DNA of 42,109 nt. Origin: a virus. Taxonomy: Duplodnaviria; Caudoviricetes. A program made the translations under genes and the position numbers. Under the pieces are notes generated by a model, which saw only the letters and a program-made list of their open reading frames with translations, ran no database searches and was not told the DNA's origin. The stretch spans positions 1 to 42,109 of IMG/VR virus record IMGVR_UViG_3300025326_000088. One strand, 5' to 3'. How positions within the stretch are numbered: the stretch's first letter is position 1; each line of letters begins with the position of its first letter. This document shows positions 11,941-26,768 of this stretch, piece by piece.

Positions 11941-12025
11941 TTTTGTTCTCCTGTTTATCAGTTTGTTACAGTTTCATATTTATTTTGATTATAACTTTGC
12001 ATATAATTCATAATTATTCTCCTGT

Positions 12026-12208
12026 TTATTTCTTTACAATATTAACCGATGCCAAGAACATGTTCCCTTTTTCATCGGCAATGGGTTGTAGTCCATGAGT
12101 AGTAGCAACAACGGTTGTTTTTCCTGACTTACTTGGACCATGATCTTCTGACAATTCTACTTCTATTGTTAATTTAGTTCCTTTAATACTTAGTTTTACA
12201 TTAGTCAT
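12026..12208 (-). CDS. Conserved small beta protein
   Basis: LTIEVEL...GPSKSGKT.VVATT.G family motif. Confidence 0.7.
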   Translation of the reverse strand: MTNVKLSIKGTKLTIEVELSEDHGPSKSGKTTVVATTHGLQPIADEKGNMFLASVNIVKK

Positions 12209-12420
12209 TGCAATTTTCTCCTTTTATTTTTTAGAGTATCATATTGGCGGCTTCCTACCAAATACAATTTATCTACTTTTATATGTTTAATTAATTTTGT
12301 TCTTTCTTTTTGCCAATTTGCTTTTGCTTCATCTTCCTTTGCAATAGTGTATTCTGCCCATAAAATGGACAGTCCTATAATTAATAATAGAATAGCTACT
12401 GAGACAAATATAAATTCCAT
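12205..12420 (-). CDS. Small membrane-anchored protein
   Basis: N-terminal hydrophobic helix. Confidence 0.6.
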   Translation of the reverse strand: MEFIFVSVAILLLIIGLSILWAEYTIAKEDEAKANWQKERTKLIKHIKVDKLYLVGSRQYDTLKNKRRKLQ

Positions 12421-12421
12421 A

Positions 12422-12832
12422 TCATTTCTCCTGTTTTATTATTGGGAATTGTTTTCCTATTTTTTGAGCAAACTGATCCCTGCAAAAAATATACTTTAAC
12501 ATGACGGGTGTTGATGGTTCTCTGCCAATACGAATCAGCACATCTTTTAAATCTTCATTGCGGATTGGAGTAGTTTTATACATAATATAGAATACTTCTT
12601 CGAGCGTAAACGGTGGAACAGGGTTGGGGACAATAGCACCGAATGCTTCGAGTTGATATACATCAATTCCTTCAACACGATTCGGGTCTATTTCTTTATT
12701 GTTCAGCATTTCATGCCAGCCTTCTTGATTGTCCGAGCAAAGCAAGATATATTCATCACTGTTTATATCTCCTTTGCGCAGACGTTCAAATAAGGCAAGA
12801 GCATCCTTGTGATAAATTACTCCATATTGCAT
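12422..12832 (-). CDS. Hypothetical protein
   Basis: GGAGG RBS, 136 aa. Confidence 0.7.
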   Translation of the reverse strand: MQYGVIYHKDALALFERLRKGDINSDEYILLCSDNQEGWHEMLNNKEIDPNRVEGIDVYQLEAFGAIVPNPVPPFTLEEVFYIMYKTTPIRNEDLKDVLIRIGREPSTPVMLKYIFCRDQFAQKIGKQFPIIKQEK

Positions 12833-12872
12833 TTAATCCTCCATTTCTTGTTCTAAAATATTATTAATCATT

Positions 12873-13100
12873 TTACCTCCAATTCTTTTGAATTACGTTA
12901 TTGCATCGAGAAGAACGAATAACTTCTGCTGATAATTTATGCGGATTTGATTTGTCAACAATTATTTTAGAAATTAACCATTTGCTTGGGAACGTTTTTG
13001 ATTGGGCATGTTCGCAATCCTTGTTCAAATGAAATCCTGAGCAGTATTTACAGCGAAATAAAACAAAACTTAAACTTGATTTAATTTTGATTCTTGTCAT
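12873..13100 (-). CDS. Hypothetical small Cys/His protein
   Basis: CKYC..FH...C; the GAGG RBS favours the MTRIK start. Confidence 0.45.
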   Translation of the reverse strand: MTRIKIKSSLSFVLFRCKYCSGFHLNKDCEHAQSKTFPSKWLISKIIVDKSNPHKLSAEVIRSSRCNNVIQKNWR

Positions 13101-13197
13101 AATTACCTCTCCGTTTGTCTCGTTCTTTTTGTTCATTCTTATTTTCCAAAACGCGCAATTAAAAAAATAAGGCCTGCAATTGGCGTTGCCTTAACCA

Positions 13198-13428
13198 TTA
13201 CATTATCAATAGGAACATTATCTGCGCTAATATCACCGCCGTAACGGAAATTTCATCTTCTAATTTTTCAACGAAAATGATTGTTTCTTTTTTAATAAGC
13301 CGATTTACAAAATCTGTAAATCCGTATATTTCTGTTCTGTCTTTAATCTCTACTGTCTCGTTAAATACGCCATCCAGCTTTGAACCTAAGGCAGTTAATA
13401 TGTTAAAATCAGCAAGTTTAATACGCAT
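13198..13428 (-). CDS. Hypothetical protein
   Basis: 76-aa ORF with AAGGT RBS. Confidence 0.55.
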   Translation of the reverse strand: MRIKLADFNILTALGSKLDGVFNETVEIKDRTEIYGFTDFVNRLIKKETIIFVEKLEDEISVTAVILAQIMFLLIM

Positions 13429-13482
13429 TATTGCACCTTTTTCTTGTTCTGGTTATGATGTTCTTGAATACGATGGGTTAAT

Positions 13483-13516
13483 AAAAAAAATAGGGTAACA
13501 ATTAAGTTACCCTATT
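13483..13516 (-). terminator. Rho-independent terminator
   Basis: Perfect 11-bp stem AATAGGGTAAC/GTTACCCTATT followed by a T-run on the minus strand. Confidence 0.85.
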
Positions 13517-13526
13517 CTGTAGTGAT

Positions 13527-13679
13527 TCACTTTTTAGGCTGATACCAAAGAAGAAAAGTTTCAGCTTCTTCTTTAGTATCAAATAGAGCAATCTTTTCGT
13601 AAATCGGGCGTTCAATCTTTACTTTTTCAATCGTGAAAATGCCATCCTTCTCAAAAATCACAAATTTATAAGCTTCCAT
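13527..13679 (-). CDS. Small early protein (50 aa)
   Basis: Read by hand: MEAYKFVIFEKDG...FDTKEEAETFLLWYQPKK; coupled to the upstream stop. Confidence 0.65.
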   Translation of the reverse strand: MEAYKFVIFEKDGIFTIEKVKIERPIYEKIALFDTKEEAETFLLWYQPKK

Positions 13680-14179
13680 TATTCTACCTTGCCTTTCCGT
13701 TTGATTCCCTGTACAAAATCCGTCACCCGGCGAATATTGCGATGATAAAGATCGAATCCGGTAGGATTTTCTTTATCCTTATATCCCAATTCTTTGATTT
13801 CCGCTTCAATCTTTTTGATTAAAGAATCCTGAGCAACTAAAAACTTATTAAATTCTGTTTTTAGCTTATTCTTTAACTCAAAAAGCGGAACCAATTTTTT
13901 CATCTTCGGTTTCGCTTCATAAACTGCGCCACCCGGGATGAATTTGGAGTACTCAGATTTTCCAGAATGAAGTCCCTTCAAAATAGTCGAAAGTGGAACG
14001 CCTTTTATAGCTTTGCCCCTTTCAATATCCTTCTGATATTCCCGGAAACTTTCAAGAGCGGTTCCAAAATCCGCTTGGGTTAATTGAGACTCGCCGGAGA
14101 TTAAACCCTTTCGCTTAAGCTGCTCTGGGGTTAATTTCTTTTTCGGTGAATCGCTACTATTGATCTTGGGCTGATTCAT
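13679..14179 (-). CDS. Early protein, paralog B
   Basis: Homologous to 10672..11163; first gene after promoter P2. Confidence 0.8.
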   Translation of the reverse strand: MNQPKINSSDSPKKKLTPEQLKRKGLISGESQLTQADFGTALESFREYQKDIERGKAIKGVPLSTILKGLHSGKSEYSKFIPGGAVYEAKPKMKKLVPLFELKNKLKTEFNKFLVAQDSLIKKIEAEIKELGYKDKENPTGFDLYHRNIRRVTDFVQGIKRKGKVE

Positions 14180-14297
14180 AATATGCCCCTTTCCTATTTA
14201 AGTGATTAGTTTACCCACTTAGGCTTAGTCCTAAGGCTGGGCCAATAGATTTTTATTTCAAAGATCGTTCCCGCATTTGAGGCGGTAATCTGAAATC

Positions 14298-14326
14298 AAT
14301 ATAATAAATAGAATATAAAAAGTCAA
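14298..14326 (-). promoter_or_regulatory. Sigma70-type promoter P2
   Basis: TTGACT-N17-TATATT. Confidence 0.75.
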
Positions 14327-14379
14327 GGATTATTTTAATTAATTTTAGGAATCTACTATTTTAATATACTGAGTAAAAA

Positions 14380-14575
14380 GTATAGAAAAGTATACAGGTG
14401 TATGAAAAAGTAGACACTGTATAGAAAAGTATACTTTCTAATGAGTGGTCAAAAAGTGTAAACTAAGTTTACGTATACTAAGTATGCAGGTGTATACTAA
14501 ATCATACATGTTATACTAAAGTATACAGGTGAATATAAGTTCACTATAATATTAATAGTGAATAAGAGTATACTA
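14380..14575. repeat. Array of about 8 imperfect palindromic 15-16-bp units (GTATAC-type hexamers ~10 bp apart)
   Basis: GTATAGAAAAGTATAC (x2), GTATGAAAAAGTAGAC, GTAAACTAAGTTTAC, GTATACTAAGTATGC, GTATACTAAATCATAC, TTATACTAAAGTATAC, GTGAATATAAGTTCAC; AAGTATRCAGGTG recurs three times. Confidence 0.8.
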
Positions 14576-14607
14576 TATATAGAGCACTGATATAATTTTA
14601 ATTATTT

Positions 14608-14647
<40 letters not shown>

Positions 14648-14991
14648 CTCTTATATAATATATAATAATATACTACTGACTGAAATTGAAAGAGCATTAT
14701 GCCCTTGAAATAAAAATAGCGGTATAGGAAATTTATAGACTCCCCCGGTCGGCGATATTAGATTGTTTTCATATAAGTTCACACATCATTTTTTTTAACC
14801 TTGTTTTTTAAAGAAAATTTATTAGGTGTTTAGAAGTTCAATATTTGTTCAATATGTTTTTTTATATTAATAATTCTCGTTTTCAACAACTTCTGAAATT
14901 TAATGTTTCTTCTTTTTTTCTGTAAACATTGAAATCTTGATTTTTTTGTTTCTGGTAACATTTGTTTCTTCATTTCAATTTCATTTTCTCC

Positions 14992-15013
14992 AAAAAAAAA
15001 AAAAAAAAAAAAA
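14992..15013. repeat. Poly(A) tract (22 nt)
   Basis: Direct reading. Confidence 0.85.
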
Positions 15014-15319
15014 TTATAAAAATTTTAGGCGTGATTTTAATTGTAGAGATTCTTGTTTGGAAAGTTTTTTACGTGTGGGTTTTGAATAAAATCTTTGTTT
15101 ATATAATTGTCGACTAGATGTTAAATTTAACACTCTCGTTTCATATATTTCCAATATAAAAGAATTTTGTCGTTGTGTTAATTTTCTACCAGTTTTATTA
15201 TAACTCCATGTTCGTTGTATAAAATCTATTTCCCATTTTGACAATTTAAATTTATTTTTTTTATTTTCTATTGCAAGAACAGATAAATAATGTCCAATCT
15301 TAAAGCCAACAATTTTCAA
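15014..15319 (-). CDS. Hypothetical phage protein (LS.WE..F...LT.RQ motif)
   Basis: Recurrent phage helical motif; start uncertain. Confidence 0.55.
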   Translation of the reverse strand: MKIVGFKIGHYLSVLAIENKKNKFKLSKWEIDFIQRTWSYNKTGRKLTQRQNSFILEIYETRVLNLTSSRQLYKQRFYSKPTRKKLSKQESLQLKSRLKFL

Positions 15320-15392
15320 AAAAAATTTTCCCCAAAATATAAAAAATTCCTCTCACTTTAAAATTTAAAAATGTCAAAAAAAACTCTTCTTG

Positions 15393-15421
15393 AAGATAAG
15401 TAAAAAATTAATCAAAGTCAA
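15393..15421 (-). promoter_or_regulatory. Sigma70-type promoter P3
   Basis: TTGACT-N17-TATCTT. Confidence 0.6.
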
Positions 15422-15453
15422 GTAAAAAATGAAAATGGATGATTTTTTTTATT

Positions 15454-15579
15454 TTATATAATATTTTGTTTCTCAAGCATTTCTATTTTAGCATCTTTCT
15501 TTGCAACTTCTTGAATCCAAGAAATTGTTATTGCTAAAATGGCTAATATTCCAACTACAAATAAAACATGTAACCACAT
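15454..15579 (-). CDS. Small single-TM protein (41 aa)
   Basis: Read by hand: MWLHVLFVVGILAILAITISWIQEVAKK...; GAGG RBS. Confidence 0.5.
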   Translation of the reverse strand: MWLHVLFVVGILAILAITISWIQEVAKKDAKIEMLEKQNII

Positions 15580-15596
15580 AGTTGTTACCTCTGTAT

Positions 15597-16187
15597 CTAA
15601 ATTGGTCTTTTTACTCGAATTTTCTTTTCATTAATAGGATTTATTATTGTACCAGTTTTGATAATATGATCCAATAATTGTTTGGTAAGTTTAATATCAT
15701 TGAGACAATAATCTATAACTGTACCAAATCGTTTTTGTTGCCATTGTACGGGAGCATTTCCACCACTTCCAGATTTATCTGTACCAAAATTTATAGAACA
15801 TATATCACCAAGTCCATATCCAATGTGTGATGGATATTGAAAATGTCTTGATAAACCAGCCGCTTCCCAAATTTCTGCGAGGAGATCATAATCTTTCTCA
15901 TCTGGATAATTGAGGTTGTTGGCTTGAAGAAGTTTCTTGTCGAAACCAATACCATTAAATGTGACTATTGTTTCCGACTGTGAAATCAAATCAGCAAATG
16001 TTAAAAAATTATCTTCTTGAAAAATTCTATATTTATCTTTTATATAATCATATACACCAATTACAGATATTCCCATGTTTTTATGATCATGCCATCCGTC
16101 ACAATATTCTATATTTGGGATTCGTGGTTCTTTGTTAGATTGTATTGCTTTTTTTATTTCTATATCATATATTATCATTGTTTGCAA
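15597..16187 (-). CDS. RNase H-superfamily (YprB/RNase_H_2-like) DEDD exonuclease
   Basis: IYDIEI, TFNGIGFD, DYCLNDIKLT. Confidence 0.8.
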   Translation of the reverse strand: MQTMIIYDIEIKKAIQSNKEPRIPNIEYCDGWHDHKNMGISVIGVYDYIKDKYRIFQEDNFLTFADLISQSETIVTFNGIGFDKKLLQANNLNYPDEKDYDLLAEIWEAAGLSRHFQYPSHIGYGLGDICSINFGTDKSGSGGNAPVQWQQKRFGTVIDYCLNDIKLTKQLLDHIIKTGTIINPINEKKIRVKRPI

Positions 16188-16199
16188 TGCTCCTTGTTT

Positions 16200-16397
16200 T
16201 TATATTTCTTCAATAAATTCCATGTAGTCTGTAAATTTTGTAAGGTAAATAAGATATTTACCAATTGCTATTGTAAGATATGTTTGCGATACTTTTCCTT
16301 TGTCTATTGTATAAACTTTTTTATTATTTGCAATTGCAATTATTTGTCCTTTATTAAGGGATGGTGGAATGTTGATTTTTAATTGGAAGATTTTCAT
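16200..16397 (-). CDS. Hypothetical protein
   Basis: AAGGAG RBS, 65 aa. Confidence 0.55.
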   Translation of the reverse strand: MKIFQLKINIPPSLNKGQIIAIANNKKVYTIDKGKVSQTYLTIAIGKYLIYLTKFTDYMEFIEEI

Positions 16398-16420
16398 AGT
16401 TTTCTCCTTAAAGTTTTTGC

Positions 16421-16449
16421 CGCAAGGTCAGCATATCCTTTTGTTAGCG
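16421..16449 (+). mobile_element. attC right half-site (attC-1)
   Basis: GGTCAGCA-N9-GTTAGCG; GTTAGCGG is 7/8 complementary to the R'' CCCCTAAC of the next attC; no left arm found. Confidence 0.55.
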
Positions 16450-16722
16450 GGCTATTCGTTTTTTAAATTCAGCATAAGATAATTCATAAGTGGTATCTGG
16501 GAAAATTATCATCACATCGATTCGTGAGTTAGCGGTTTTTGAAGATTCTCTCCATTCATGCCAGTTAAAAGCGGTCATATCAATGCAAATTCCAATGGCA
16601 ATAGTAGTTTCTTTTAGATAGTTTGGTTCAAGGTTATGCGCTTGAGCAAAAACCCCTAACCATATAATGCAGCCGAACAAAAGGACTGCGGTGGGAATTA
16701 AATATTTAAAATGTTTCTTCAT
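16444..16722 (-). CDS. Cassette-borne secreted or membrane protein
   Basis: Signal-peptide-like N-terminus; starts inside the attC-2 loop and stops at the TTA of the attC-1 R' box. Confidence 0.7.
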   Translation of the reverse strand: MKKHFKYLIPTAVLLFGCIIWLGVFAQAHNLEPNYLKETTIAIGICIDMTAFNWHEWRESSKTANSRIDVMIIFPDTTYELSYAEFKKRIAR

Positions 16723-16777
16723 GTTTTATCTCTTTATAAATGTTTCAAATTTTGTCGGCTGATTATCACCGTTATGT
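16654..16777 (+). mobile_element. Integron attC site (attC-2, 124 bp)
   Basis: CCCTAAC-CATA-TAAT[G]CAGCCGA[A]CAAAA ... TTTTG-TCGGCTG-ATTA-TCACC-GTTATGT: R and L boxes with two extrahelical bases. Confidence 0.85.
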
Positions 16778-16968
16778 CAAGAAGAAATCCAGTTCTCAAT
16801 TTTTTCCGCCTTCTCAGGATGTTCTTTTCTAAATTCATCCCTCAATGCGACGCATCCCTGGCAAGTCACGATGATAGACAAATCGTGATCAGTGCCGTTA
16901 ATCACTCTTTCAATGAGCAATTTCTTTTTGCATTTGGGACATTCCGCAAATGTTATATCGTATCTCAT
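16777..16968 (-). CDS. Cassette-borne small Zn-ribbon protein
   Basis: MRYDITFAECPKC...TCQGC; AAGGA RBS before ATG 16968; lies between attC-2 and attC-3. Confidence 0.7.
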   Translation of the reverse strand: MRYDITFAECPKCKKKLLIERVINGTDHDLSIIVTCQGCVALRDEFRKEHPEKAEKIENWISS

Positions 16969-16998
16969 AGTAAATTTCCTTGTTTTAGCAGTCCGACG

Positions 16999-17127
16999 CC
17001 CTAACAAAGCGTTTGCACCTGAACGGTGCACATACCCCTACGTTCATAGCTGCGACATATGTGAGCCACGTTCCGCCCATCGGATTAATCCGCTACGCCG
17101 TCAGGTGAAACGCCAAATCTGTTAGGA
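16999..17127 (+). mobile_element. Integron attC site (attC-3, 129 bp)
   Basis: CCCTAAC-AAA-GCGTTT[G]CACCTGA[A]CGG ... CCG-TCAGGTG-AAACGC-CAAATCT-GTTAGGA; internal palindrome CGGATTAATCCG. Confidence 0.88.
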
Positions 17128-17306
17128 GTCAAAGCGCGCTGTCCATCGCCCCGCATGGCATCGGGGACATTTAGCAAGTTTACCCTTACTCTTGTGTGTC
17201 CCTTAAATAACATTTGTAAAGATGCTCTGAATAATATCCATGCTGTTTGGTAACGCTGTTTCTTGTTTCCCAATCCTTTCTCCCAATCAATAATTTTCCA
17301 TGCCAT
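17085..17306 (-). CDS. Hypothetical protein (C-terminus reads into attC-3; probably chimeric)
   Basis: AGGAG RBS; final residues are encoded by the attC arm. Confidence 0.5.
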   Translation of the reverse strand: MAWKIIDWEKGLGNKKQRYQTAWILFRASLQMLFKGHTRVRVNLLNVPDAMRGDGQRALTPNRFGVSPDGVAD

Positions 17307-17313
17307 TTTAATT

Positions 17314-17823
17314 TTATCTCCTTTTTCTTTTTACAATTCTAAAAGCCCTAAATTGTATCTGTTTATGTTTATTCCCAATTAATCTAAAATCGATCTTATG
17401 CGCCAGCCCGCAATCACAACATTTCACGTAATAGTTTTTTCTTCTCGGCGTTATCCATTCCCCGTCATATTGTTGTTTGTATCTCATAGTCGGTGTTCTC
17501 GTCCATCGCCCCGCACGGCAGAGAAGACATAGATGATCATAATGTCCGAATCCATGCGCCGAACAAATAGAAGCCCACCAAAACCCGAACCAGGTACGAT
17601 TGCGAAAAAATCCAACTATGCCTTTAACCGGACCCGCTTTGTCTTCTGTGCGCTTATATATTAATAGCTGTATAACTATAGCCGATAGACCCCCCGATGT
17701 AATAATCCCACAAATGATTTTCCACCTAAAAATATTCCAGCAAAATTCATAATCCAAATATTCTTCGGGAGATGGATACAGTTCCACAAGCTCTGATCCA
17801 CAATATTCACATTTGTTACTCAT
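17314..17823 (-). CDS. Cys-rich hypothetical protein, apparent fusion of two small phage genes
   Basis: CEYC...CSAH...CLLCRAGRW joined in frame to MRYKQQYDGEWITP...CCDCGLAH; start moved to MSNK. Confidence 0.6.
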   Translation of the reverse strand: MSNKCEYCGSELVELYPSPEEYLDYEFCWNIFRWKIICGIITSGGLSAIVIQLLIYKRTEDKAGPVKGIVGFFRNRTWFGFWWASICSAHGFGHYDHLCLLCRAGRWTRTPTMRYKQQYDGEWITPRRKNYYVKCCDCGLAHKIDFRLIGNKHKQIQFRAFRIVKRKRR

Positions 17824-17827
17824 CCGT

Positions 17828-18052
17828 TTACACTCCAACAAACCAAATCCCGTCCGGTTCAAACTTTCCGTTGTCATCACAAAAATATTTACGGGTTTCT
17901 TCATAGCATCCGGCAGTCAATACTTCACCATGTGTCACAGATCGGAAATAATTATTTACGGTTATTTCAATAACTGTTCCCGCTTTCATCCACGGCAAAT
18001 CCTTCATTAAAACAAATTTGTTGGGCGTATGAACACTATAAATTTTATTCAT
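17828..18052 (-). CDS. Hypothetical protein
   Basis: AGGAG RBS; LMKDLPWMKAGT motif. Confidence 0.65.
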   Translation of the reverse strand: MNKIYSVHTPNKFVLMKDLPWMKAGTVIEITVNNYFRSVTHGEVLTAGCYEETRKYFCDDNGKFEPDGIWFVGV

Positions 18053-18279
18053 TTTTTCTCCTGAAATAAAAGTAAATTTTGCAAAACATATACTATGTAT
18101 TCCCTATTGTATATTTGCCACGCCCGCTCCCAATTGGTCCATTCTTGTTGTTTGATTTCGCCTGTCCAACTCATGAAATCCTTTCTGTATTCTTCTGGTA
18201 TTTTTGCAAACGGAGGTGCGTATTCTCCGTCTAACAATTTTATCAAATCTTTTATCAAGTTCGCTGGCTGCTTCTTCAT
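18049..18279 (-). CDS. Hypothetical protein
   Basis: AAGGAG RBS just inside the attC-4 arm. Confidence 0.65.
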   Translation of the reverse strand: MKKQPANLIKDLIKLLDGEYAPPFAKIPEEYRKDFMSWTGEIKQQEWTNWERAWQIYNREYIVYVLQNLLLFQEKK

Positions 18280-18322
18280 TTTTTAGTTCTCCTTGCTTTT
18301 TTAGTTCATTGCTCGAAACCCA

Positions 18323-18348
18323 CCTTCCGGTGAGCATCAACGTTATAC
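18323..18348 (+). mobile_element. attC right half-site (attC-4)
   Basis: CCGGTGAGCA-TCAAC-GTTATAC; its TTA is the stop codon of 18343..18648. Confidence 0.55.
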
Positions 18349-18648
18349 CGCCTTTAATTGTTGTATCCAATCCCAAACCAGACTATTATAATTTTTGTTA
18401 TGGTGATTTTTCTTTATTTTGTCTTCCATGTCATTGATAAAGTTGTCAAGAGATATTAATCGTTGCTTCATTTGTTCATATTCATTAAGGGGCAGGCTAA
18501 CCACTGGCTGCTCCCGAACGGAAGGGGCTGAGATTTCTTTTATTGCATTTATAATTTGGGCTATTTGACATCGCACGGAATATGTAGAGCCAAGTTCAAC
18601 TTCTATTCCATGTTTTTTTAGTAATTCAATTATTTTTTTATCAGTCAT
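18343..18648 (-). CDS. Cassette-borne hypothetical protein
   Basis: RBS and ATG lie in the attC-5 right arm; stop lies in the attC-4 R' box. Confidence 0.7.
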   Translation of the reverse strand: MTDKKIIELLKKHGIEVELGSTYSVRCQIAQIINAIKEISAPSVREQPVVSLPLNEYEQMKQRLISLDNFINDMEDKIKKNHHNKNYNSLVWDWIQQLKAV

Positions 18649-18669
18649 AGAGAGCCTCGTTTGTTAGAT
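18495..18669 (+). mobile_element. Long, degenerate attC site (attC-5, 175 bp)
   Basis: GGCTAAC-CACT-GGCT[G]CTC ... GAGAGCC-TCGTTT-GTTAGAT; extra G at the canonical position; loop is coding. Confidence 0.6.
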
Positions 18670-18715
18670 TTGCGCTTTTTCCAACTTATTTTTCATCGGC
18701 ATTTTTATTCTCCTA

Positions 18716-18970
18716 TTATTTTTCCAAATATTTTTTATAATATTCCCAAGTTAATAATGATATTTGACTTGCTGTTTTAACTTTTTGATTGGATTGAAAT
18801 ATTTCTTTAATAGACAATTTTGCTAATGCAATTTTTTGTTTTAATGGGATTAGTTCATTTGGTATTACTATAACAGATTTTTTAATTTTACCATCTATTT
18901 CTAATTGTATCCCAGCTCCGGATGTTCCTGATGGTGATGTTATATTGTTACTAATTATTATTCGTTTCAT
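18716..18970 (-). CDS. Hypothetical protein
   Basis: Coupled ORF. Confidence 0.55.
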   Translation of the reverse strand: MKRIIISNNITSPSGTSGAGIQLEIDGKIKKSVIVIPNELIPLKQKIALAKLSIKEIFQSNQKVKTASQISLLTWEYYKKYLEK

Positions 18971-19242
18971 ATATTTATCTTCTTGTTTGCATGTTCTGCT
19001 ATTATTTTATCAATCCAGTTCTTGTGTATCCAAATCCAATTTTTTTTACCATTTGGAGATACTCCATGGTTGTCGATTCTTAATACGGATTTAGGTACAA
19101 ATGAAGTTAAATGGTTTTTAAGTTTAAATAATATTGCTTTTTGTGTTTGTGAAATAGCATAGACATATTTAAATGGTTGAAAATTGTCTATTTCTTGTAT
19201 ATCTAATATTTTAAGATATGGCTGCCATTCATGGGTTTTCAT
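18967..19242 (-). CDS. Hypothetical phage protein (TQKAILF...VPKS motif)
   Basis: Recurrent phage beta-barrel motif. Confidence 0.65.
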   Translation of the reverse strand: MKTHEWQPYLKILDIQEIDNFQPFKYVYAISQTQKAILFKLKNHLTSFVPKSVLRIDNHGVSPNGKKNWIWIHKNWIDKIIAEHANKKINI

Positions 19243-19245
19243 AGT

Positions 19246-19467
19246 TTAATTCCAAATTATTAACATATTATAAGGTTCAAGAATTATTCGTGTTCCACTA
19301 AATTTTAATTCTTTTTTTTCTATAAAGCGTTCAAAGATATAAAATTCTTCTTGATGTAAGATTGGTGTTTTTATTAATGTGTTTTTATTTTGCGATGCTA
19401 TTATGTTTATTTGATGAAATAATTTTGTGTTTGTCATGTTATTTTCAAATATTTGGAAATGTTCCAA
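19246..19467 (-). CDS. Hypothetical protein
   Basis: ORF in the operon. Confidence 0.45.
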   Translation of the reverse strand: MEHFQIFENNMTNTKLFHQINIIASQNKNTLIKTPILHQEEFYIFERFIEKKELKFSGTRIILEPYNMLIIWN

Positions 19468-19762
19468 TTCCCATGATTTCAGTTATTCTGTATCTAAAAA
19501 TTAATATTTGTTTTTCAAATTGTGGTTTTTCTGTTTCTATTGTCGACATTACCGGGACATCAAATTCTGATTGTAAACTAATGATTCCAGATTCATCGTC
19601 AAAGTGATGTTTCTTTCCAGAAATTTTTTGACCATTTTTGAAATGGATAACAAATTTTTGTCCTACGTTAAGATTTTTTAATACTTGCCATATCCCAGCA
19701 AGGGACAATAAATCTTCTGATATATTGTTTAAATCTTCTGGTTCTTTATATTCATTTGACAT
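19445..19762 (-). CDS. Hypothetical protein, possible Sm-like fold
   Basis: GQKFVIHFKNGQKISG pattern; GGAGG RBS. Confidence 0.55.
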   Translation of the reverse strand: MSNEYKEPEDLNNISEDLLSLAGIWQVLKNLNVGQKFVIHFKNGQKISGKKHHFDDESGIISLQSEFDVPVMSTIETEKPQFEKQILIFRYRITEIMGIGTFPNI

Positions 19763-19965
19763 TATGCCTCCATTAATAATTCATGTTTCTGTTGAAAATT
19801 CTTTTTGGTTAATTTTCCTTTTGAATATTCTATCAGTGTTTGTTTGATACTATGAAGTAACAACTCATTTATAGATATTCCAAGAGTAGCGGCAGCAGAT
19901 TTAAATTGACTGCGTTGTGTTGATGTTTCAAAGTCCATAACATATTTTGTTGTTTTATATCCCAT
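19762..19965 (-). CDS. Ribbon-helix-helix (Arc/CopG-like) DNA-binding protein
   Basis: Alternating beta strand KYVMDF followed by FKSAAATLGISINELL helices. Confidence 0.7.
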   Translation of the reverse strand: MGYKTTKYVMDFETSTQRSQFKSAAATLGISINELLLHSIKQTLIEYSKGKLTKKNFQQKHELLMEA

Positions 19966-19994
19966 GTTATATTTTCCTGTCTTTAAATATCATA

Positions 19995-20027
19995 AATAAA
20001 TATAATAAATATAATAAATATAGTCAA
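19995..20027 (-). promoter_or_regulatory. Promoter P4 overlapped by three 9-bp direct repeats
   Basis: TTGACT-N17-TATATT; AATAAATAT x3 at 19995-20021. Confidence 0.7.
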
Positions 20028-20129
20028 GTTTTTTATTTTTTGAGTTAAGTTTAATAAAATCAATAAGTTATATTAACAATTTAAAATTGATTGAATTAGA
20101 GAGCTCAAAACTCTACATTGTATATCAGA

Positions 20130-21062
20130 ATGAGTATTTATAATGAAAAAGAACGTGAAGTCGGGTTGTTTAAAAGTAATTTTAGTGAAGAAGGAATTAG
20201 ATTTCGTTGTTTAAGAAAAAAAGAAAATGAACGTTGGCAATGGTTGGGGTTGTCTAAATTTTATAATGGAGTTCATTATGCTGAAATTTACACACTCGAA
20301 CAAGCAATTCAAAAAAATATTGATCCTCGCAAAGATTGGCGCATTCCACTTAAATCAGAAAAACATTATTTTGTTCCAAATGTTTATGCCCAAAAAAACG
20401 ATTGGGTTATAACGGAAGTACCTGGTCCATTGGAAGAATTTTGGATTATGCAAGTGCTTTGGAGGTGTGATTCATTAAAAGGAGATTTGTCGCATATTAG
20501 AACTGCTACTGGAACATATTTTGTAGATAAATTTGGAAGAAAAACTAAATTATTTGATGGGACAGATTTAAAAGGACAATATCATATTTCAACATCAGAA
20601 GCATATCAAGTTAAAAGTAACATTAATCAAAAAAGAATTAAATTATTAGTTACATTTATAGTCGCTCTTATTAAACAATATGGAGCATTTAATAAAGAAA
20701 TTGTAATGATGGCTTATAGGTCTGCCTATGGGAATGATGCAAGTTGGCAGAAAGTCGTCTTAATTATGAAAAGCGAGCCAATCATGAGTGAAGTAGCAAA
20801 ACAATTAGCGGATTTGTTAAAAGAGAGGGGGGCATCGCCAGAATTTGTTGTAGATAATTTTGTTGATATGGCCAAAAGTGAATATGATAAAGACCCAAAG
20901 CGTAGGGAAAGGATTAATCGTTTGCTTGGGTTAATGAATAATTTGCCAACGCTTGAGGATGCAAAACAACTTGGGGAAGGAAATGGGAAAGCGATTCCAG
21001 CAAAGTTTAGGGATGTTGAAGAAGTAGAAGTAACAAATGATTTGGAAAAAATTGAAGAATAA
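20130..21062 (+). CDS. Putative terminase small subunit with N-terminal extension
   Basis: Directly upstream of and coupled to TerL; the C-half AYRSAY...IMSEV...L...G...EFVV is TerS-like. Confidence 0.55.
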   Translation: MSIYNEKEREVGLFKSNFSEEGIRFRCLRKKENERWQWLGLSKFYNGVHYAEIYTLEQAIQKNIDPRKDWRIPLKSEKHYFVPNVYAQKNDWVITEVPGPLEEFWIMQVLWRCDSLKGDLSHIRTATGTYFVDKFGRKTKLFDGTDLKGQYHISTSEAYQVKSNINQKRIKLLVTFIVALIKQYGAFNKEIVMMAYRSAYGNDASWQKVVLIMKSEPIMSEVAKQLADLLKERGASPEFVVDNFVDMAKSEYDKDPKRRERINRLLGLMNNLPTLEDAKQLGEGNGKAIPAKFRDVEEVEVTNDLEKIEE

Positions 21063-22831
21063 TGGATTCTGATAAAAAACAACAATTTAGGGATATTATT
21101 AACACTGAACCTATTTGGGGCAAAGCTGGAAATGCCATGGTTAAAGTGTTATTTCCTTATGCTTTTCGTAGGGCTGGCGGAGAATTATCTATATTTGCCA
21201 GATATATTCTTTGGGCGTTAATTAATCATTTAAAAATAATTGTTCAACTTCCCCGGTTCCATGCCAAATCTACTGTAATAACTTTCCTTTATGTAATGTA
21301 TTGTATTCTTATTAAGAAGAAAAAGTACATTCTTATTTTATCTTCAACTGGTGGACAGGCCGTTAAATTTTTAATGCGTATTCGTGTTTATTTACAAAGT
21401 AGAAAAATGCGAACATATTATGGTGATATCGGCCGAGCCGTTGATATTAAAGATGTAAATGAGTCATTTGAATATGTTGAAGAAGATGGTAAAAAGAGAT
21501 CACGTGTTTGGAATTTTAAAGAAATTTACATAGAACCTTGGGGTATTAGAATTATGGCATCTTCTATTAAATCCGCTAATAGAGGATTGCTTAGTGTTGA
21601 TGATCGACCAGATTTAATTATATTTGATGATGTTGAAGACAGAAAGAATACCAATACGTTGGAGTTGCGGCAAAAATTAATTGAAGATATTTTTGAAGAA
21701 ATTATTCCTGCCGGAGATATTGATTGTCAATTTATCGCAGTTGGAACTATTTGTCATTTTGGTTCTTATTTGTTAAAATTAAAACAATCTGATTCTTGGT
21801 TTAAAATTCCGATGGAAAGATCAACAGATACGATTGAAAATATTTTAAAGTTAAACGATTTGCTTCCAAGTGAATTTCCAAAAGAATATAGATTTAATCC
21901 AAGATCAGAATATTTTACACAGGATCAAATTGGTATTGATGGACATAAATATTTTAAAGGACAGGAAACCCCGGAAGTAGCTTTATGGCAAGGTATTTAT
22001 GATTATGAATATTTTTGCGATAAAAGAGAAGAAGCTGCTGCCGTTGGGGTATTGCCTTCTTTTTGGCAAGAACGATATAATATTCCTAAAACAAATGAAT
22101 CCAGAGTATTTACAGAATTTCGGTATGTTCAAGGATTAGAAATTAAATATTTGTTTAATGAACTTATTCTTGAAGCAAACGTTGAAAGTCCATTTGTATT
22201 TCCAAATGGAAGAAAAGTTTGTAATGTTCTTTCATTTATTGGTGGCGACCTTGCTGTAAGCGAAGCAACGAGTGCTGATTGGAGAGCATTTTTTATTGGA
22301 TTTACTGATCCTTGGGGAAATGTGTATGTATTGCCTCCTTATAGAACAAAAGAACCTGATCCTTTTATTATTGGAAAATGGATATTAACAAAACATAATA
22401 AATATAATTTTGAATCAGGAACGTTTGATGGTCAGCATTTTCAGAAATGGTTTGGGAGAATTTTAAAACATTTAGTTGTGCATGAAAAGAATAAAGATGG
22501 AGAGAAAGAATATAGCAAATTAAAAGTGTATCAAGAACCAAGAAGCGAGCAAAAAGAACAGGTAATTTCTGGTACATTGGCTCCATATATTACTGGAGAG
22601 AAATTATATTTTGTTGGAAATCCATCTGAATTTAAAGAAACTGTTGATGAATTAATGTATTTAGGATATTGGGACACTGATGATCTTGCTGACGCTTTAA
22701 CGTATTTTTGTTCACATTTAAAATTTCCCGCTTTTATTGATTTTGATTTTATTAGGCCAATGGGACAAATTTCAGCAAGATCGGCATGGTACGATGATAT
22801 ACCAATAGAAAGAAGAGCATGGCTTTCGTAA
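21062..22831 (+). CDS. terL: Terminase large subunit
   Basis: PRFHAKST Walker A, LIIFDDVE Walker B, VGT coupling motif, GGDLA and DDLADAL nuclease motifs. Confidence 0.93.
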   Translation: MDSDKKQQFRDIINTEPIWGKAGNAMVKVLFPYAFRRAGGELSIFARYILWALINHLKIIVQLPRFHAKSTVITFLYVMYCILIKKKKYILILSSTGGQAVKFLMRIRVYLQSRKMRTYYGDIGRAVDIKDVNESFEYVEEDGKKRSRVWNFKEIYIEPWGIRIMASSIKSANRGLLSVDDRPDLIIFDDVEDRKNTNTLELRQKLIEDIFEEIIPAGDIDCQFIAVGTICHFGSYLLKLKQSDSWFKIPMERSTDTIENILKLNDLLPSEFPKEYRFNPRSEYFTQDQIGIDGHKYFKGQETPEVALWQGIYDYEYFCDKREEAAAVGVLPSFWQERYNIPKTNESRVFTEFRYVQGLEIKYLFNELILEANVESPFVFPNGRKVCNVLSFIGGDLAVSEATSADWRAFFIGFTDPWGNVYVLPPYRTKEPDPFIIGKWILTKHNKYNFESGTFDGQHFQKWFGRILKHLVVHEKNKDGEKEYSKLKVYQEPRSEQKEQVISGTLAPYITGEKLYFVGNPSEFKETVDELMYLGYWDTDDLADALTYFCSHLKFPAFIDFDFIRPMGQISARSAWYDDIPIERRAWLS

Positions 22832-22868
22832 ATAATAAATGTTTAATTAATAATTAAGAGGTTGTAGG

Positions 22869-23855
22869 ATGAATAAATTATTTAGTTTTATTTTAGTATT
22901 GTTAATGGTAATTCCATTATATTTGTTTTCTCAAGACGGTGAAGGGATTGGTCCATTTGGTAGAAATATTGGCAGCGTATACAATAGACCCGTGTTTTCA
23001 CGTGGAGCTTCTTTTTATGCAGATTGGTCTCTTAGTTTTAGAAATAGATATAATCTTATGTATTCTTCTGATGATTCTTCGATGGTTTGGCATGTTGATA
23101 CTCTTACTTTTAACATTGATTATATTAAACAAGGTCAAGGATTTTGGGCTAATTGTCCTTTGCCAATATCTGATCCATCTGGAAGTTTTCGATATTTTGA
23201 AGATTTTATTGGGATTCCATTTGTAGTTACAACTAATGCTTGGGAAGGATGGAAGGCTACTGGAGATGCTTCTTATGTTATAGCTTCCGCCGCGGGTAAT
23301 CTTGGTGGTATCGTAAGTGTTACTCCGGTTACTGCAAGCAATAATGAAATTTATTTTCAACTTGGGGAGCTTGGTACAGAGACATTTATTGAGTATACAG
23401 GGGATAGTGGTTTACAAAGTTGGGTTGAATTTAGAATATCCACAGATGCGGTAACGGATGCCGGTATTATATTTGTTGGATTGGCAGAAGAAGGTTCTTC
23501 TGCTGCTGATTTTCTTAATGATGATGGCGCTGATGTGGCGGATAAAGATGTGGTTGGGTTTTGTGTATTTGAAGCTAATCCAGATACGGTGACATTTATT
23601 TATCAAACAAGTGGAAGCGCATTCGTTACTGACACATTGTCTGTTATTACTACCGCATATTTTACCGCTGGATTGCATTTTGATGGAGTTACTACTGTTG
23701 ATATTTATATAAATGGCACTCAAGTATCTACCGTAGAAACGGATGTTGCTGGTTTTCCAGATGGTGAAGAATTGTCTCCAATTGTAGCTGTGAAAAATGG
23801 AGCAGCAGATAAAACAGTTTATTTAGATTGGATTAAATTTGTAAATGAAAGATAA
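22869..23855 (+). CDS. Signal-peptide-bearing beta-sandwich (ConA/LamG-like) protein, possibly virion-associated
   Basis: MNKLFSFILVLLMVIPLYLFS-Q leader; acidic beta-rich body ending VYLDWIKF. Confidence 0.6.
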   Translation: MNKLFSFILVLLMVIPLYLFSQDGEGIGPFGRNIGSVYNRPVFSRGASFYADWSLSFRNRYNLMYSSDDSSMVWHVDTLTFNIDYIKQGQGFWANCPLPISDPSGSFRYFEDFIGIPFVVTTNAWEGWKATGDASYVIASAAGNLGGIVSVTPVTASNNEIYFQLGELGTETFIEYTGDSGLQSWVEFRISTDAVTDAGIIFVGLAEEGSSAADFLNDDGADVADKDVVGFCVFEANPDTVTFIYQTSGSAFVTDTLSVITTAYFTAGLHFDGVTTVDIYINGTQVSTVETDVAGFPDGEELSPIVAVKNGAADKTVYLDWIKFVNER

Positions 23856-23867
23856 TTTGATGTCAAG

Positions 23868-24053
23868 ATGGCTAAAATGAAAAATAGATTACAAAAGTTG
23901 GATAAAATAAGTTCTAAGATGATACATTGTTTTGTTTTAGTTTTAATTATTATGGTTGTGGTTTGGATAATTTTTGAACTTATTGTAGGCTATTCCACTT
24001 ATCGCAATTGGTGGTTAGTGTTTGAGAAACTTATGACGGATTTGTTTAAATGA
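23868..24053 (+). CDS. Small membrane protein
   Basis: One TM helix. Confidence 0.55.
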   Translation: MAKMKNRLQKLDKISSKMIHCFVLVLIIMVVVWIIFELIVGYSTYRNWWLVFEKLMTDLFK

Positions 24054-24406
24054 TTGAGATCATTATTGTCTATTTGATTATCCTGGAATTGAAGACCATA
24101 AGGGATATAATCTTGTTCCGATTCTCGATTTCAATTCTGACCAAATTGCCGGAGTGGTTGCGGCAATTTTTAAAAGGCAGTTATAACAATTACGATGTCA
24201 CTATGCGAGCGAATGTTTTTGATGGTTTTCATTTAACCGATGGAACAATCATTACTGGCAGTTTTGCATTGACGATGTATTTTAAATATGGACTGATAAT
24301 AATGCTGTGGACTATTCCGCTTTTTTGGATAATCTTTTACCCGGTGTTGTTCAATTTCAATTATCATTTCATACACACATTGAAAGCATTTAGAGATTAT
24401 GAATAA
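24050..24406 (+). CDS. Multi-TM membrane protein
   Basis: Hydrophobic segments; D.FH motif. Confidence 0.6.
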   Translation: MIEIIIVYLIILELKTIRDIILFRFSISILTKLPEWLRQFLKGSYNNYDVTMRANVFDGFHLTDGTIITGSFALTMYFKYGLIIMLWTIPLFWIIFYPVLFNFNYHFIHTLKAFRDYE

Positions 24407-24767
24407 AGTTTATGGATATTCTCTTTCATTAGATTTGCATGATTGTGATATTAAGAAATTTAATAGAAAATCAATTAAAATGTTTTTTAAAGTGCTTTGT
24501 CAATTTACAAATATGACGCCCGAAAAGTTATCATGGTGGGATTACGAAGGAGAAGATATGATTCATGTGCCTATTCATTTATCAGGAATATCGGCAGTGC
24601 AATTTATAACCACAAGTTCTATCGTTATACACAGTTTAGATAAATTAGGAAAAGTTTTTATTGATTTTTTTTCTTGTAAGGAATTTGATCCCAATCAGAT
24701 AAGAGAATTTTGTGCTAATTTTTTCGCAGGAGTAGAAAAACGATGGAGTTATTTTGAGAGAATTTAA
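24399..24767 (+). CDS. S-adenosylmethionine decarboxylase-like pyruvoyl enzyme
   Basis: YG..L.LDLHDC, GISAVQFITTSSIVIH, IDFFSCKEFD motifs. Confidence 0.85.
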   Translation: MNKVYGYSLSLDLHDCDIKKFNRKSIKMFFKVLCQFTNMTPEKLSWWDYEGEDMIHVPIHLSGISAVQFITTSSIVIHSLDKLGKVFIDFFSCKEFDPNQIREFCANFFAGVEKRWSYFERI

Positions 24768-25761
24768 TGTTGTTATGATTATTCCTACCGGCATCGGATG
24801 TACTATTGGTGGTCATGCAGGGGACGCTACACCTGCCGCGAGGCTTTTAGCATCTGTTTGTGACAATTTAATTGTACATCCGAATGTAGTTAATGCTTCT
24901 GATATTAATGAAATGACTGAAAATATGTGGTATGTTGAGGGAAGTATTCTTGATAGATTTTTGAAAGGAGAAATTGCGCTTTCAAAACTTGGTCAAAATA
25001 AAATTTTATTAGTAGTAAATAAACCGATTCGTGGAGATACAATTAATGCGGTTGCAGCAGTTCAACATACCTTGGGAATTGACATAGAAATCAAAGAACT
25101 TGACATTTCGTTGCTTATGAACGGAAGTTTTAATAATGATGGAACTGCGGGCGGAAGTTATTCGGGGGTTGAGGAGTTAGTTGAGCAAATAAAACAATAT
25201 GATTATGATGCTTTAGCCATTCATACTGAAGTCGAATTAAGTCGTGATATTGCTCTTAATTATTTTAAAAATGGTGGAGTTAATCCATGGGGTGGAATTG
25301 AAGCAATCGTTTCCAAATTAATCGCTACGGCAATAAATAAACCAGTAGCTCATGCTCCAATGGAACGTGAAGAAACTATTTTTGATAAAGAGTTAATTTT
25401 TTATTATAAAAATATTTCTTCTCAACCACGTACTTGTGCAGAATTATTGTCTACAACATATTTGCCATGTGTTCTGAAAGGATTAAATACAGCGCCTCGT
25501 ATTGATCCATATGGACGACAATTAAATTATCCTATGGATGTTTTGATTTCTCCAAATAATTGTTATGGGATGCCTCATAAAATTTGTGAGGAGCGAAATA
25601 TTCCCATTATTGCAGTGCGTGAAAATAACTGTTGCTTGAATAAGCCAATCCCAACTAATCACATTTTTGTTGAGAATTATTTAGAAGCTGCTGGTATTTT
25701 GGCTTGTATGCGAAGTTCTATTAATCCTAAATCAGTTTTGTATAATGTTAAAAGCATTTAG
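24754..25761 (+). CDS. DUF3326 family protein
   Basis: IPTGIGC.IGGHAGDA.P.ARLLA.VCD.LI.HPNV.N and GVNPWGG.EA..S...P.AHAP signatures. Confidence 0.85.
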   Translation: MREFNVVMIIPTGIGCTIGGHAGDATPAARLLASVCDNLIVHPNVVNASDINEMTENMWYVEGSILDRFLKGEIALSKLGQNKILLVVNKPIRGDTINAVAAVQHTLGIDIEIKELDISLLMNGSFNNDGTAGGSYSGVEELVEQIKQYDYDALAIHTEVELSRDIALNYFKNGGVNPWGGIEAIVSKLIATAINKPVAHAPMEREETIFDKELIFYYKNISSQPRTCAELLSTTYLPCVLKGLNTAPRIDPYGRQLNYPMDVLISPNNCYGMPHKICEERNIPIIAVRENNCCLNKPIPTNHIFVENYLEAAGILACMRSSINPKSVLYNVKSI

Positions 25762-25766
25762 AGATT

Positions 25767-26108
25767 ATGAAAGCAAGAGAAGATAAAATATTGCTATTAA
25801 TTATCATCATTGTTATCTTGATGCTAATCAGAATGGATGCACAGGATTTATCGAACGAAGCAAACTTAACCGATGAGGTATATCATGTTGAACAAATGTA
25901 TAATATTCTTAATCTTGATTCTCTTCGCGCTGAGTTTCAAGAGCTCGATCGCCAGCGATTTCAAATTCGCAGCAGCGGCTGGACTGGCGAGCTACGACTT
26001 CCACAACGATTGGGAAGCCTTAAAGACGCCACTTATGGGCGGTGTGGAATGGACAAAAGTCAAGAACCTTCCATTAGGGATTTTCATAGCGCCGACCATC
26101 GGCAATAA
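25767..26108 (+). CDS. N-terminally membrane-anchored protein (i-spanin-like)
   Basis: TM at residues 8-21 followed by a helical segment; overlaps the next gene out of frame. Confidence 0.45.
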   Translation: MKAREDKILLLIIIIVILMLIRMDAQDLSNEANLTDEVYHVEQMYNILNLDSLRAEFQELDRQRFQIRSSGWTGELRLPQRLGSLKDATYGRCGMDKSQEPSIRDFHSADHRQ

Positions 26109-26265
26109 GAACGGCAAAAATATTTCAACGCTCGATGCTATTTTCCATACTGATTTATTGTCAAAGTTTGGCATCGGATTCTCCGCACAATTTTATGATG
26201 TAAGAAAATCAGGATTAGTATTCTTCAGAAATCGAAAGTTAGTTTTGACATGGAGATTGCGTTGA
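25873..26265 (+). CDS. Secreted beta-strand protein (outer-membrane barrel-like)
   Basis: Signal peptide ending SIA; amphipathic strands; C-terminal LVLTWRLR. Confidence 0.55.
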   Translation: MRYIMLNKCIIFLILILFALSFKSSIASDFKFAAAAGLASYDFHNDWEALKTPLMGGVEWTKVKNLPLGIFIAPTIGNKNGKNISTLDAIFHTDLLSKFGIGFSAQFYDVRKSGLVFFRNRKLVLTWRLR

Positions 26266-26768
26266 ACAACTTCAGGGGCGTAAAATCAAGATATGATTAT
26301 AGTCTAAATTTCTTACAAAATTATGTAAAAACCTATGAAACGATTCTTGATTTGGGAGCAAAAAATAATTTATCACATAAAATGAAAAGACGAGGATTTG
26401 AAGTTGTTAATACAAATTACGATCTGGATTTGGAACCCGAAAAACTTGAGAAGGAATTTTATAACGTGGTAACTGCTTTTGAAATATTGGAACATTTGAT
26501 TGAACCTGCACAAGTTTTGAAAAGATTGAGTGGAAAATTATTGGCGTCTGTTCCATTAAATGTTTGGTTCTCCTCTCCGCATTGGACGACGGAGCCTTAT
26601 GAACAACATTATCAGGAATTTCATCCGCAGCAGTTTGACAAATTGCTCCGTTATTGTGGGTGGGTAATCGTAAAGAAAAAAAAGGTGAGAATTGTTAAAC
26701 GATTCGGCATAAGACAAATATTAAGTTTAATTTTTCCACGTTATTATTTTGTATATGCGGTAAAATAA
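26250..26768 (+). CDS. Class I SAM-dependent methyltransferase
   Basis: ILDLGA, VVTAFEILEHL..P, ASVP, HYQEF. Confidence 0.85.
   Translation: MEIALNNFRGVKSRYDYSLNFLQNYVKTYETILDLGAKNNLSHKMKRRGFEVVNTNYDLDLEPEKLEKEFYNVVTAFEILEHLIEPAQVLKRLSGKLLASVPLNVWFSSPHWTTEPYEQHYQEFHPQQFDKLLRYCGWVIVKKKKVRIVKRFGIRQILSLIFPRYYFVYAVK

Follow-up and report, generated by a model that had tools for sequence, protein, structure and literature searches.

The stretch considered here, called the window, is the full 42,109 nucleotides (nt) of the virus record IMGVR_UViG_3300025326_000088 (Caudoviricetes). It belongs to a tailed phage; a terminase, a P22-like portal, a major capsid protein, a DnaB-like helicase and a DNA methyltransferase were recognised when 71 open reading frames (ORFs) were scanned. 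Upstream of the terminase block, within a leftward run of small genes, the region 16427-18714 carries sites of the type known as attC from integron cassettes. This region is probably a partly eroded integron-type attC cluster with its genes on the bottom strand, the cassettes of which have likely been moved by an integrase acting in trans and are likely read by the phage. The stretch occurs in sediment and soil metagenome runs, the majority of which may have been the origin of this DNA, with an identical copy in two metagenome contigs. The attC-like features of the array are as follows.

16654..16777, + strand: attC-2, complete, 124 nt, unpaired G at position 16, predicted crossover G16771/T16772 (G/TT)
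16999..17127, + strand: attC-3, complete, 129 nt, strongest hairpin, predicted crossover G17121/T17122 (G/TT)
18495..18669, + strand: attC-5, weak composite site of 175 nt with mismatched inner arms
16427..16449, + strand: right half-site, arm and R' box GTTAGCG, left arm not found; low confidence as an attC arm, the motif match being circular (the search expression was derived from the site)
18327..18348, + strand: right half-site, arm and R' box GTTATAC
17610..17635, + strand: orphan left half-site, R''-like box and arm; an 8-nt complementary arm at 17853-17860 is too distant for a normal attC

A further orphan left arm, degenerate and with its R'' box lost, was recognised by eye at 18262-18275. 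Sites were scored for attC geometry with an in-house detector, and the chance level was taken from 20 simulated windows. The scores of attC-2 and attC-3 were 18.0 and 17.5, and no site of 13 or more appeared in the simulated windows (n=20). The score of attC-5 was 9.4, and chance yields about three such sites per window. Under an in-house constraint set, the folding probability of the bottom strand was 0.61 for attC-2, 0.89 for attC-3 and 0.06 for attC-5. By z-score of the plain minimum free energy attC-3 stands out at -3.7, with attC-2 at -0.7 and attC-5 at +1.4. The R boxes of attC-2 and attC-3 fit AAC/GTT, with small departures from the consensus RYYYAAC / GTTRRRY, and both lengths fall in the range of 55-141 nt given for attC hairpins (PMC7370490); attC-5 falls outside it. 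The initial annotation had counted sites at 16427-16449 and 18327-18348, where right arms alone were found, and had also counted attC-5, which was overstated in view of its chance-level score, folding and composite structure. It had also used the extrahelical bases to orient the cassettes on +, and this was confirmed. The unpaired G lies on the + left arm (the R'' side) at position 16 in attC-2, 17 in attC-3 and 16 in attC-5, in the numbering that puts this base near position 16 of the R'' arm (Nivina 2016, PMC5027507), and the top strand of the sites is therefore +.

Clusters of attC sites lacking integron-integrases (CALIN) are defined by at least two same-strand attC sites within 4 kb and no integron-integrase nearby (Cury 2016, PMC4889954). 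In the window, attC-2 and attC-3 lie 221 nt apart, both with + as the top strand. No match to tyrosine recombinase families was found among the 71 window ORFs, and a tblastn search of the window with IntI protein gave nothing at E<=1, about 11 kb of the same virus's 53-kb contig lying outside that search. The complete-integron arrangement, with intI, attI and the promoter Pc beside the array, was not seen; the window is without intI, and attI and Pc were not sought further. Within the window, the cassette 16772-17121 alone bears a strong site at both ends. The genes of the array are listed below.

16444..16722, - strand: 92-aa (amino acid) ORF, signal-peptide-like N-terminus (by eye), start in the attC-2 loop, stop on the TTA of the neighbouring R' box, codon score +2.1
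16777..16968, - strand: 63-aa ORF with two Cys pairs, body of cassette 16772-17121, start 30 nt outside attC-3 (an in-arm GTG at 17031 is possible), codon score -0.3
17085..17306, - strand: 73-aa ORF, runs through the R' box of attC-3 and stops within its right arm, an exception to the stop rule
17314..17823, - strand: 169-aa ORF, likely a module fusion, in frame through the orphan left arm, no Pfam match, first-start codon score not positive
17828..18052, - strand: 74-aa ORF
18049..18279, - strand: 76-aa ORF, first codons overlapping the degenerate left arm 18262-18275, body joined to module 1 in a co-occurring virus
18343..18648, - strand: 101-aa two-module ORF, residues 1-45 in the attC-5 loop, about 44-51 in its left arm, 47-100 in the cassette body, stop on the TTA of R'
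18664..18714, - strand: 12-aa remnant ORF (18664-18702) stopping on the TTA of the attC-5 R' box, with AGGAG at 18714-18710

Coding potential was judged with a codon model whose training set comprised long ORFs from the window and the fetched loci. Of 21 plus-strand ORFs of at least 30 aa starting in 16300-18800, 20 had a negative first-start score, and most minus-strand ORFs were positive. All credible ORFs of the array are thus on -, as initially annotated, and the classical layout of a top-strand ORF ending at or before attC is not what the array contains. The stops described earlier were borne out as well. The R'-box G preceding the TTA stands at 16443 for 16444..16722, at 18342 for 18343..18648 and at 18663 for the remnant with its AGGAG, and the fourth ORF, 16777..16968, stops on a TGA at 16779-16777 that overlaps the last base of the R' box GTTATGT. 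Outside the array none of 61 called window genes ends in TAAC. Two ORFs do begin in hairpins, the attC-2 left arm encoding LFGCIIWLG and the attC-5 left arm VREQPVVS. As a design, starting in the hairpin and stopping on R' holds at the ORFs for which it was described, but not at attC-3, which follows neither rule. None of the array ORFs has a Pfam or PHROG family. For 16444..16722 and 16777..16968 no homologue was found beyond this virus cluster, and ORF 17314-17499 gave three weak viral matches. Close relatives, identified by terminase among viral contigs, have no region syntenic with the array; the nearest virus record gives no coverage of 12000-24000, and by blastn the array matched GenBank phages and plasmids only in short chance stretches. 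Near the 3' ends of two coding modules in the array, 17141-17170 and 17501-17530 form a G+C-rich 30-nt direct repeat (83% alike).

The same polarity is found in other phages. Loci came from pattern scans, five over viral contigs and one over bacterial genomes, and the survey counts given here and below are among the matches listed. Site-level counts used a detector score of at least 13, excluded loci under 1200 nt and took flanks for the first 80 loci of large scans, and genes were called with the in-house codon model. The viral loci held at least 161 distinct attC sites (in 82 of 278 loci), with the gene left of R'' antisense at 100, sense at 17 and none called at 44. The bacterial loci held at least 21 (in 18 of 80 loci), with the left gene antisense at 0, sense at 14 and none at 7. 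Clustering of related loci gave 55 antisense, 13 sense and 6 tied viral clusters against 0, 14 and 4 bacterial loci (Fisher p 9e-9). Cassettes between neighbouring sites were antisense-only in 74 of 98 viral cases (5 sense, 3 both, 16 none); after 40 extra stretches were added, the 26 bacterial cassettes comprised 0 antisense-only, 15 sense, 2 both and 9 none. Twenty stretches beside bacterial intI genes contributed 14 more sites, 11 sense, 0 antisense and 3 uncalled. The antisense layout dominates the arrays of other phages and is rare in bacterial arrays, and the phage-associated antisense class proposed in the initial annotation does exist. Its cargo includes N6/N4 methyltransferases and YopX. 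No site of 13 or more was found in the 84 loci L001-L084, and attC arrays are therefore not present in every phage. Viruses hold both polarities; the viral contig L085 (1085-2975) has a canonical sense array with methyltransferase and HNH-like cargo. In L135 (1668-2057), two attC-like sites were called on opposite strands, 270 nt apart.

The ends of the viral cassettes were also compared. Of the 77 viral cassettes that contain an antisense gene, 30 have their stop on the TTA at the crossover, against a TAAC end in 97 of 1452 control phage genes. Starts inside the hairpin, which had been put forward as part of the design, do occur but are a minority (17 of 100 antisense genes), chiefly at long sites (14 of 29 for sites above 90 nt). 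By site length the counts were 1/52 up to 70 nt, 2/19 at 71-90, 10/23 at 91-120 and 4/6 for longer sites. The remaining 83 antisense genes start outside the hairpin, for the most part 15-45 nt away from R''. The idea that the left arm is read in a fixed frame was tested and found no support (11 of 17 in one frame against 8 expected from open frames, p 0.11; two frames in the window). The cleanest start-in-hairpin example is L612 (75-737), with two tandem cassettes whose genes start in attC sites of 194-198 nt and stop on R'.

Comparison of related loci points to the canonical crossover at R'. A methyltransferase cassette in L101, L117 and L120, which are related and count as one family, starts at the G/TTA of three different neighbours and ends at its own G/TTA. 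Invariant columns numbered 15/91 in the left flank, 313/668 in the gene, 74/79 in the 5' leader with its own attC and 10/77 in the right flank, and conservation steps at G/TTA on both sides. This shared cassette is cut canonically at G/TT on both sides, and the genes are therefore truly backwards. In a second family (L605/L609/L610/L612) similarity is lost right after the TAAC stop. Qi et al. have reported that two tested attC sites of phage H101 recombined with attI1 at the R' junction, the bottom strands better than the top (Qi 2023, PMC9892861). The published attC bottom strands of H101 lie on the strand of its annotated genes, i.e., antisense; none of its genes stops on R', and its top strand carries an 82-aa ORF that is not annotated. 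Of the phage clusters in that report that could be oriented, TJE1 is sense, and H101 and ctTUS972 are antisense, with one coding sequence of ctTUS972 stopping on R'; three others yielded no orientation. In L101 (1950-2010) the methyltransferase cassette has a leader complementary to the left arm of its attC, which forms a rival hairpin beside the ribosome site; in the same interval R'' on the bottom strand reads TATAAT, a possible cassette-borne -10 box.

The weak site attC-5 is a composite that arose by rearrangement. Homologues of 18343..18648 match either residues 1-53 or residues 47-100, one or the other. In a co-occurring virus, which reaches about a third of the depth, 18495-18648 is present together with its own ribosome site and lacks the right arm; there the module is joined at the R'' box, via 8 bases and in frame, to codon 6 of ORF 18049..18279. 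The left arm so travels with the N-terminal module and marks the module joint, and the joint at R'' may have been made either by top-strand IntI action or by short homology between like arms. The same population shares 16774-16969, from the ATG of 16777..16968 to 3 nt past its stop, and a half-site resembling 16427..16449 precedes the 16968 start in it. The runs with the co-occurring virus may belong to one campaign and are not independent. An exact G/TT joint variant of the window cassettes was not seen in 7 runs, and the only variant of the window array, L599, has the left arm without its GTT and without a partner arm. The N-terminal module (module 1) was found as a free phage gene, as an antisense cassette body and as an attC loop. 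Module-1 homologues stop on TAAC in 5 of 16 non-self loci, the shared sequence ending there; a search of the Atlas assigned module 1 to no named family (best 0.83).

IntI exceeded the family cut-off in 5 of 50 viral records, three of which are related and carry it beside antisense arrays, where intI follows the cassette genes on the bottom strand. A bottom-strand intI of their own, lying downstream of antisense cassette genes and pointing the same way, is carried by the viral contig L101 (1-3756) and by records G006, G010 and G011. Among bacterial genomes with such attC sites IntI is present in 16 of 25, and the window and the intI-less viral records would need the integrase of a host. Storage in host integrons, as had been suggested, is matched by one contig of unverified origin but not by the host cassettes, 0 of 26 being antisense-only. 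In that 2.3-kb metagenome contig, L605, a module-1 homologue begins within a weak, long hairpin and terminates on R', in the midst of an array of near-identical attC sites with sense genes, which would fit storage in a host integron. From the crossover at R' it follows that antisense cassettes would be silent behind a host Pc, as the strand rules of Nivina 2016 (PMC5027507) suggest. The four phage promoters P1-P4 of the initial annotation were not confirmed, with 40 consensus matches against 31.4 +/- 5.0 in shuffles. One candidate lies upstream of the operon that runs through the array.

19994..20028, - strand: candidate sigma-70 promoter (site 20027-19999), 10/12 consensus by consensus match only, with a 35-nt copy at 14293-14327

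The proposed mechanism is as follows. An integron integrase supplied in trans would have moved the cassettes, cutting at the normal G/TT of R', and the cassettes would be read from the phage's own leftward transcript and not from the host Pc promoter. Because the cut leaves the TTA on the cassette, the cassette would bring its own stop codon to any G to which it is joined. Its 5' end would adjoin the cassette's hairpin, in most cases 15-45 nt beyond R'', and would fall within the loop where the loop is long. The hairpin would fix the orientation, leaving a phage cassette silent in a host integron and a host-type cassette silent in a phage array. Outside 16772-17121 the arms appear to have been split and re-paired, and left arms kept in coding sequence may serve as in-frame module joints, e.g., at 18495. 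The cargo would consist of small accessory phage proteins, here a predicted exported protein and a Cys-pair protein, and in relatives the products of DNA methyltransferase and YopX genes.

Several observations weigh against this reading. The window has only two strong attC sites, and all three of its long sites were missed by an in-house covariance model of 60 positions built from 41 short attC sites. The strongest site, attC-3, breaks the stop rule (17085..17306 reads through its R') and the start rule (the best next start, 16968, is outside). The boundaries of the segments shared with the co-occurring virus fall on start codons, on R'' and on 16774, which is inside the predicted crossover by two bases, and not exactly at G/TT. 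Among the module-1 homologues 11 of 16 do not end on TAAC, two of them being cut by contig ends. The polarity rule is not absolute, with 13 of 74 viral clusters and phage TJE1 sense. Gene calls from the in-house codon model contain errors (L106 was called sense and is antisense by eye), and the sites of TJE1 and H101 escaped the detector, which also made a weak opposite call for L609/L610 (9.2). The bacterial control is small, coming from one pattern and fetched arrays.

Part of this evidence would suit inert relics, captured once and no longer integrase substrates, whose arms provide short homology for ordinary phage recombination shuffling gene pieces. Most window sites are half-sites or composite, the window is without IntI, the break points in the co-occurring virus lie at ATGs and R'', and the L599 arm has lost both GTT and partner. 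However, attC-2 and attC-3 keep full geometry and fold (0.61 and 0.89), and attC sites of relatives are far more conserved than the gene (74/79 vs 313/668 columns). Such decay would account for the present state of this copy but not for its polarity, and is considered unlikely. Mirror-image sites, recombined through the other strand at R'', would make the genes ordinary sense cassettes with unpaired bases on the other arm. Read on -, the order of GTT, gene, TAAC stop and hairpin does resemble that of a classical cassette, the co-occurring virus has its module swap at R'' (18495), and some attC sites recombine the top strand at a low rate (PMC5027507). Yet the methyltransferase gene travels with the hairpin on its 5' side and its neighbour changes right after TAAC, as also in L609/L610/L612/L605, and H101 sites prefer the bottom strand (PMC9892861), which renders this account quite improbable. 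If the hairpins were chance structures, or regulatory RNA stems lying between co-transcribed phage genes, with no relation to integrons, this would suit attC-5, which is within chance, and the failure of the short-site covariance model at every window site; TAA is moreover the commonest stop in A+T-rich DNA. This is scarcely credible for the array, given that two sites score 18 and 17.5 where neither the 20 simulated windows nor L001-L084 held any at 13, the clustering of the sites within 2.3 kb and the presence of IntI beside the same layout in L101. An attC cluster with bottom-strand genes, probably served in trans, remains the likeliest reading.

Other features of the window lie outside the array. 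Long poly-T/poly-A runs at 14591-14645 and 14991-15045 form an intergenic 55-nt inverted repeat with a 345-nt spacer, possibly an origin or genome-end signal. The late region 24399-26768 encodes an AdoMet decarboxylase, a DUF3326 protein and a methyltransferase domain, possibly a DNA- or polyamine-modification cluster. A single open-ended ORF of at least 1349 aa without Pfam match occupies 38063-42109 on +, where minus-strand ORFs are likely shadows. At about 19050-20030 the GC skew changes sign where transcription diverges, with a cumulative minimum at 19050. Folding of attC is favoured when the bottom strand is the lagging-strand template (Loot 2017, PMC5371416); replication polarity could not be read from the GC skew, which tracks the coding strand throughout.

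In integrons, the asymmetry of attC inserts a cassette so that Pc can read it. In most viral arrays that asymmetry goes with genes of the opposite polarity, which suggests a second cassette pool at the service of phages; phages likely make use of the integron shuffling system for genes readable by them alone. It is possible, though doubtful at present, that phages run a mirror-image pool on the integron machinery, with IntI and attC chemistry common to host and phage cassettes, each pool silent in the array of the other and coding arms acting as in-frame joints. If so, phage genes could be carried unexpressed in host integrons and host anti-phage cassettes captured by a phage would not be switched on; coding attC arms would assemble new phage proteins out of modules, and the origin of new cassettes would be visible in free phage genes. 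Host integrons store many anti-phage systems (10.1101/2024.07.02.601686), and the phage-host conflict would be affected by a polarity that keeps host cassettes silent in phages. The occurrence of one module as free gene, cassette body and attC loop makes the question of cassette origin testable. In one large metagenomic survey, ORF calling was confined to the attC strand, and any ORF sharing more than 50 nt with attC was discarded (PMC7370490); antisense cassettes would therefore be missed or counted as empty.

Several known systems resemble parts of this arrangement. Synthetic attC sites have reportedly been embedded in protein-coding sequence for module shuffling by Nivina et al. in 2020; there too the arms are read as protein between protein modules, whereas here the case is natural, the joint is at R'' with an eroded partner arm, and a role of IntI in it is only putative. 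In Vibrio superintegrons, toxin-antitoxin cassettes carry inverted ORFs transcribed against the array direction. Gene-less host cassettes with antisense promoters have also been reported (10.1101/2023.11.21.568050). ORF-11 of attI1 likewise takes its stop codon from the crossover box, with translational coupling, but uses the top-strand TAG of GTTAG, while the window cargo genes end on the bottom-strand TAA of the same box (review PMC8876359). With integron cassettes (PMC4889954, PMC5027507) the window shares the R''/L''/L'/R' geometry, the unpaired base at 16-17 on the R'' arm and the crossover at G/TT of R'; it differs in that the gene is on the bottom strand and stops on R' instead of R'', the ribosome site and start lie beside or inside the gene's own hairpin, and the window has no intI. 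The phage attC clusters of Qi et al. (2023, PMC9892861) similarly have at least two same-strand attC sites less than 4 kb apart, no intI and small hypothetical genes together with, in relatives, DNA methyltransferases; the words 'antisense', 'opposite' and 'reverse' are absent from the text of that report, its figures and Dryad files being outside the check. Phage attC clusters are thus already published, and reversed gene polarity as a class appears new, no report of it having been found in a literature search that left subscription journals outside; bioRxiv supplements may list inverted cassettes. Host inverted and antisense-promoter cassettes are likewise transcribed against the array direction, but are exceptional and have their own promoter, whereas in the type represented by the window phage whole arrays are reversed and run co-directionally with the phage operon.

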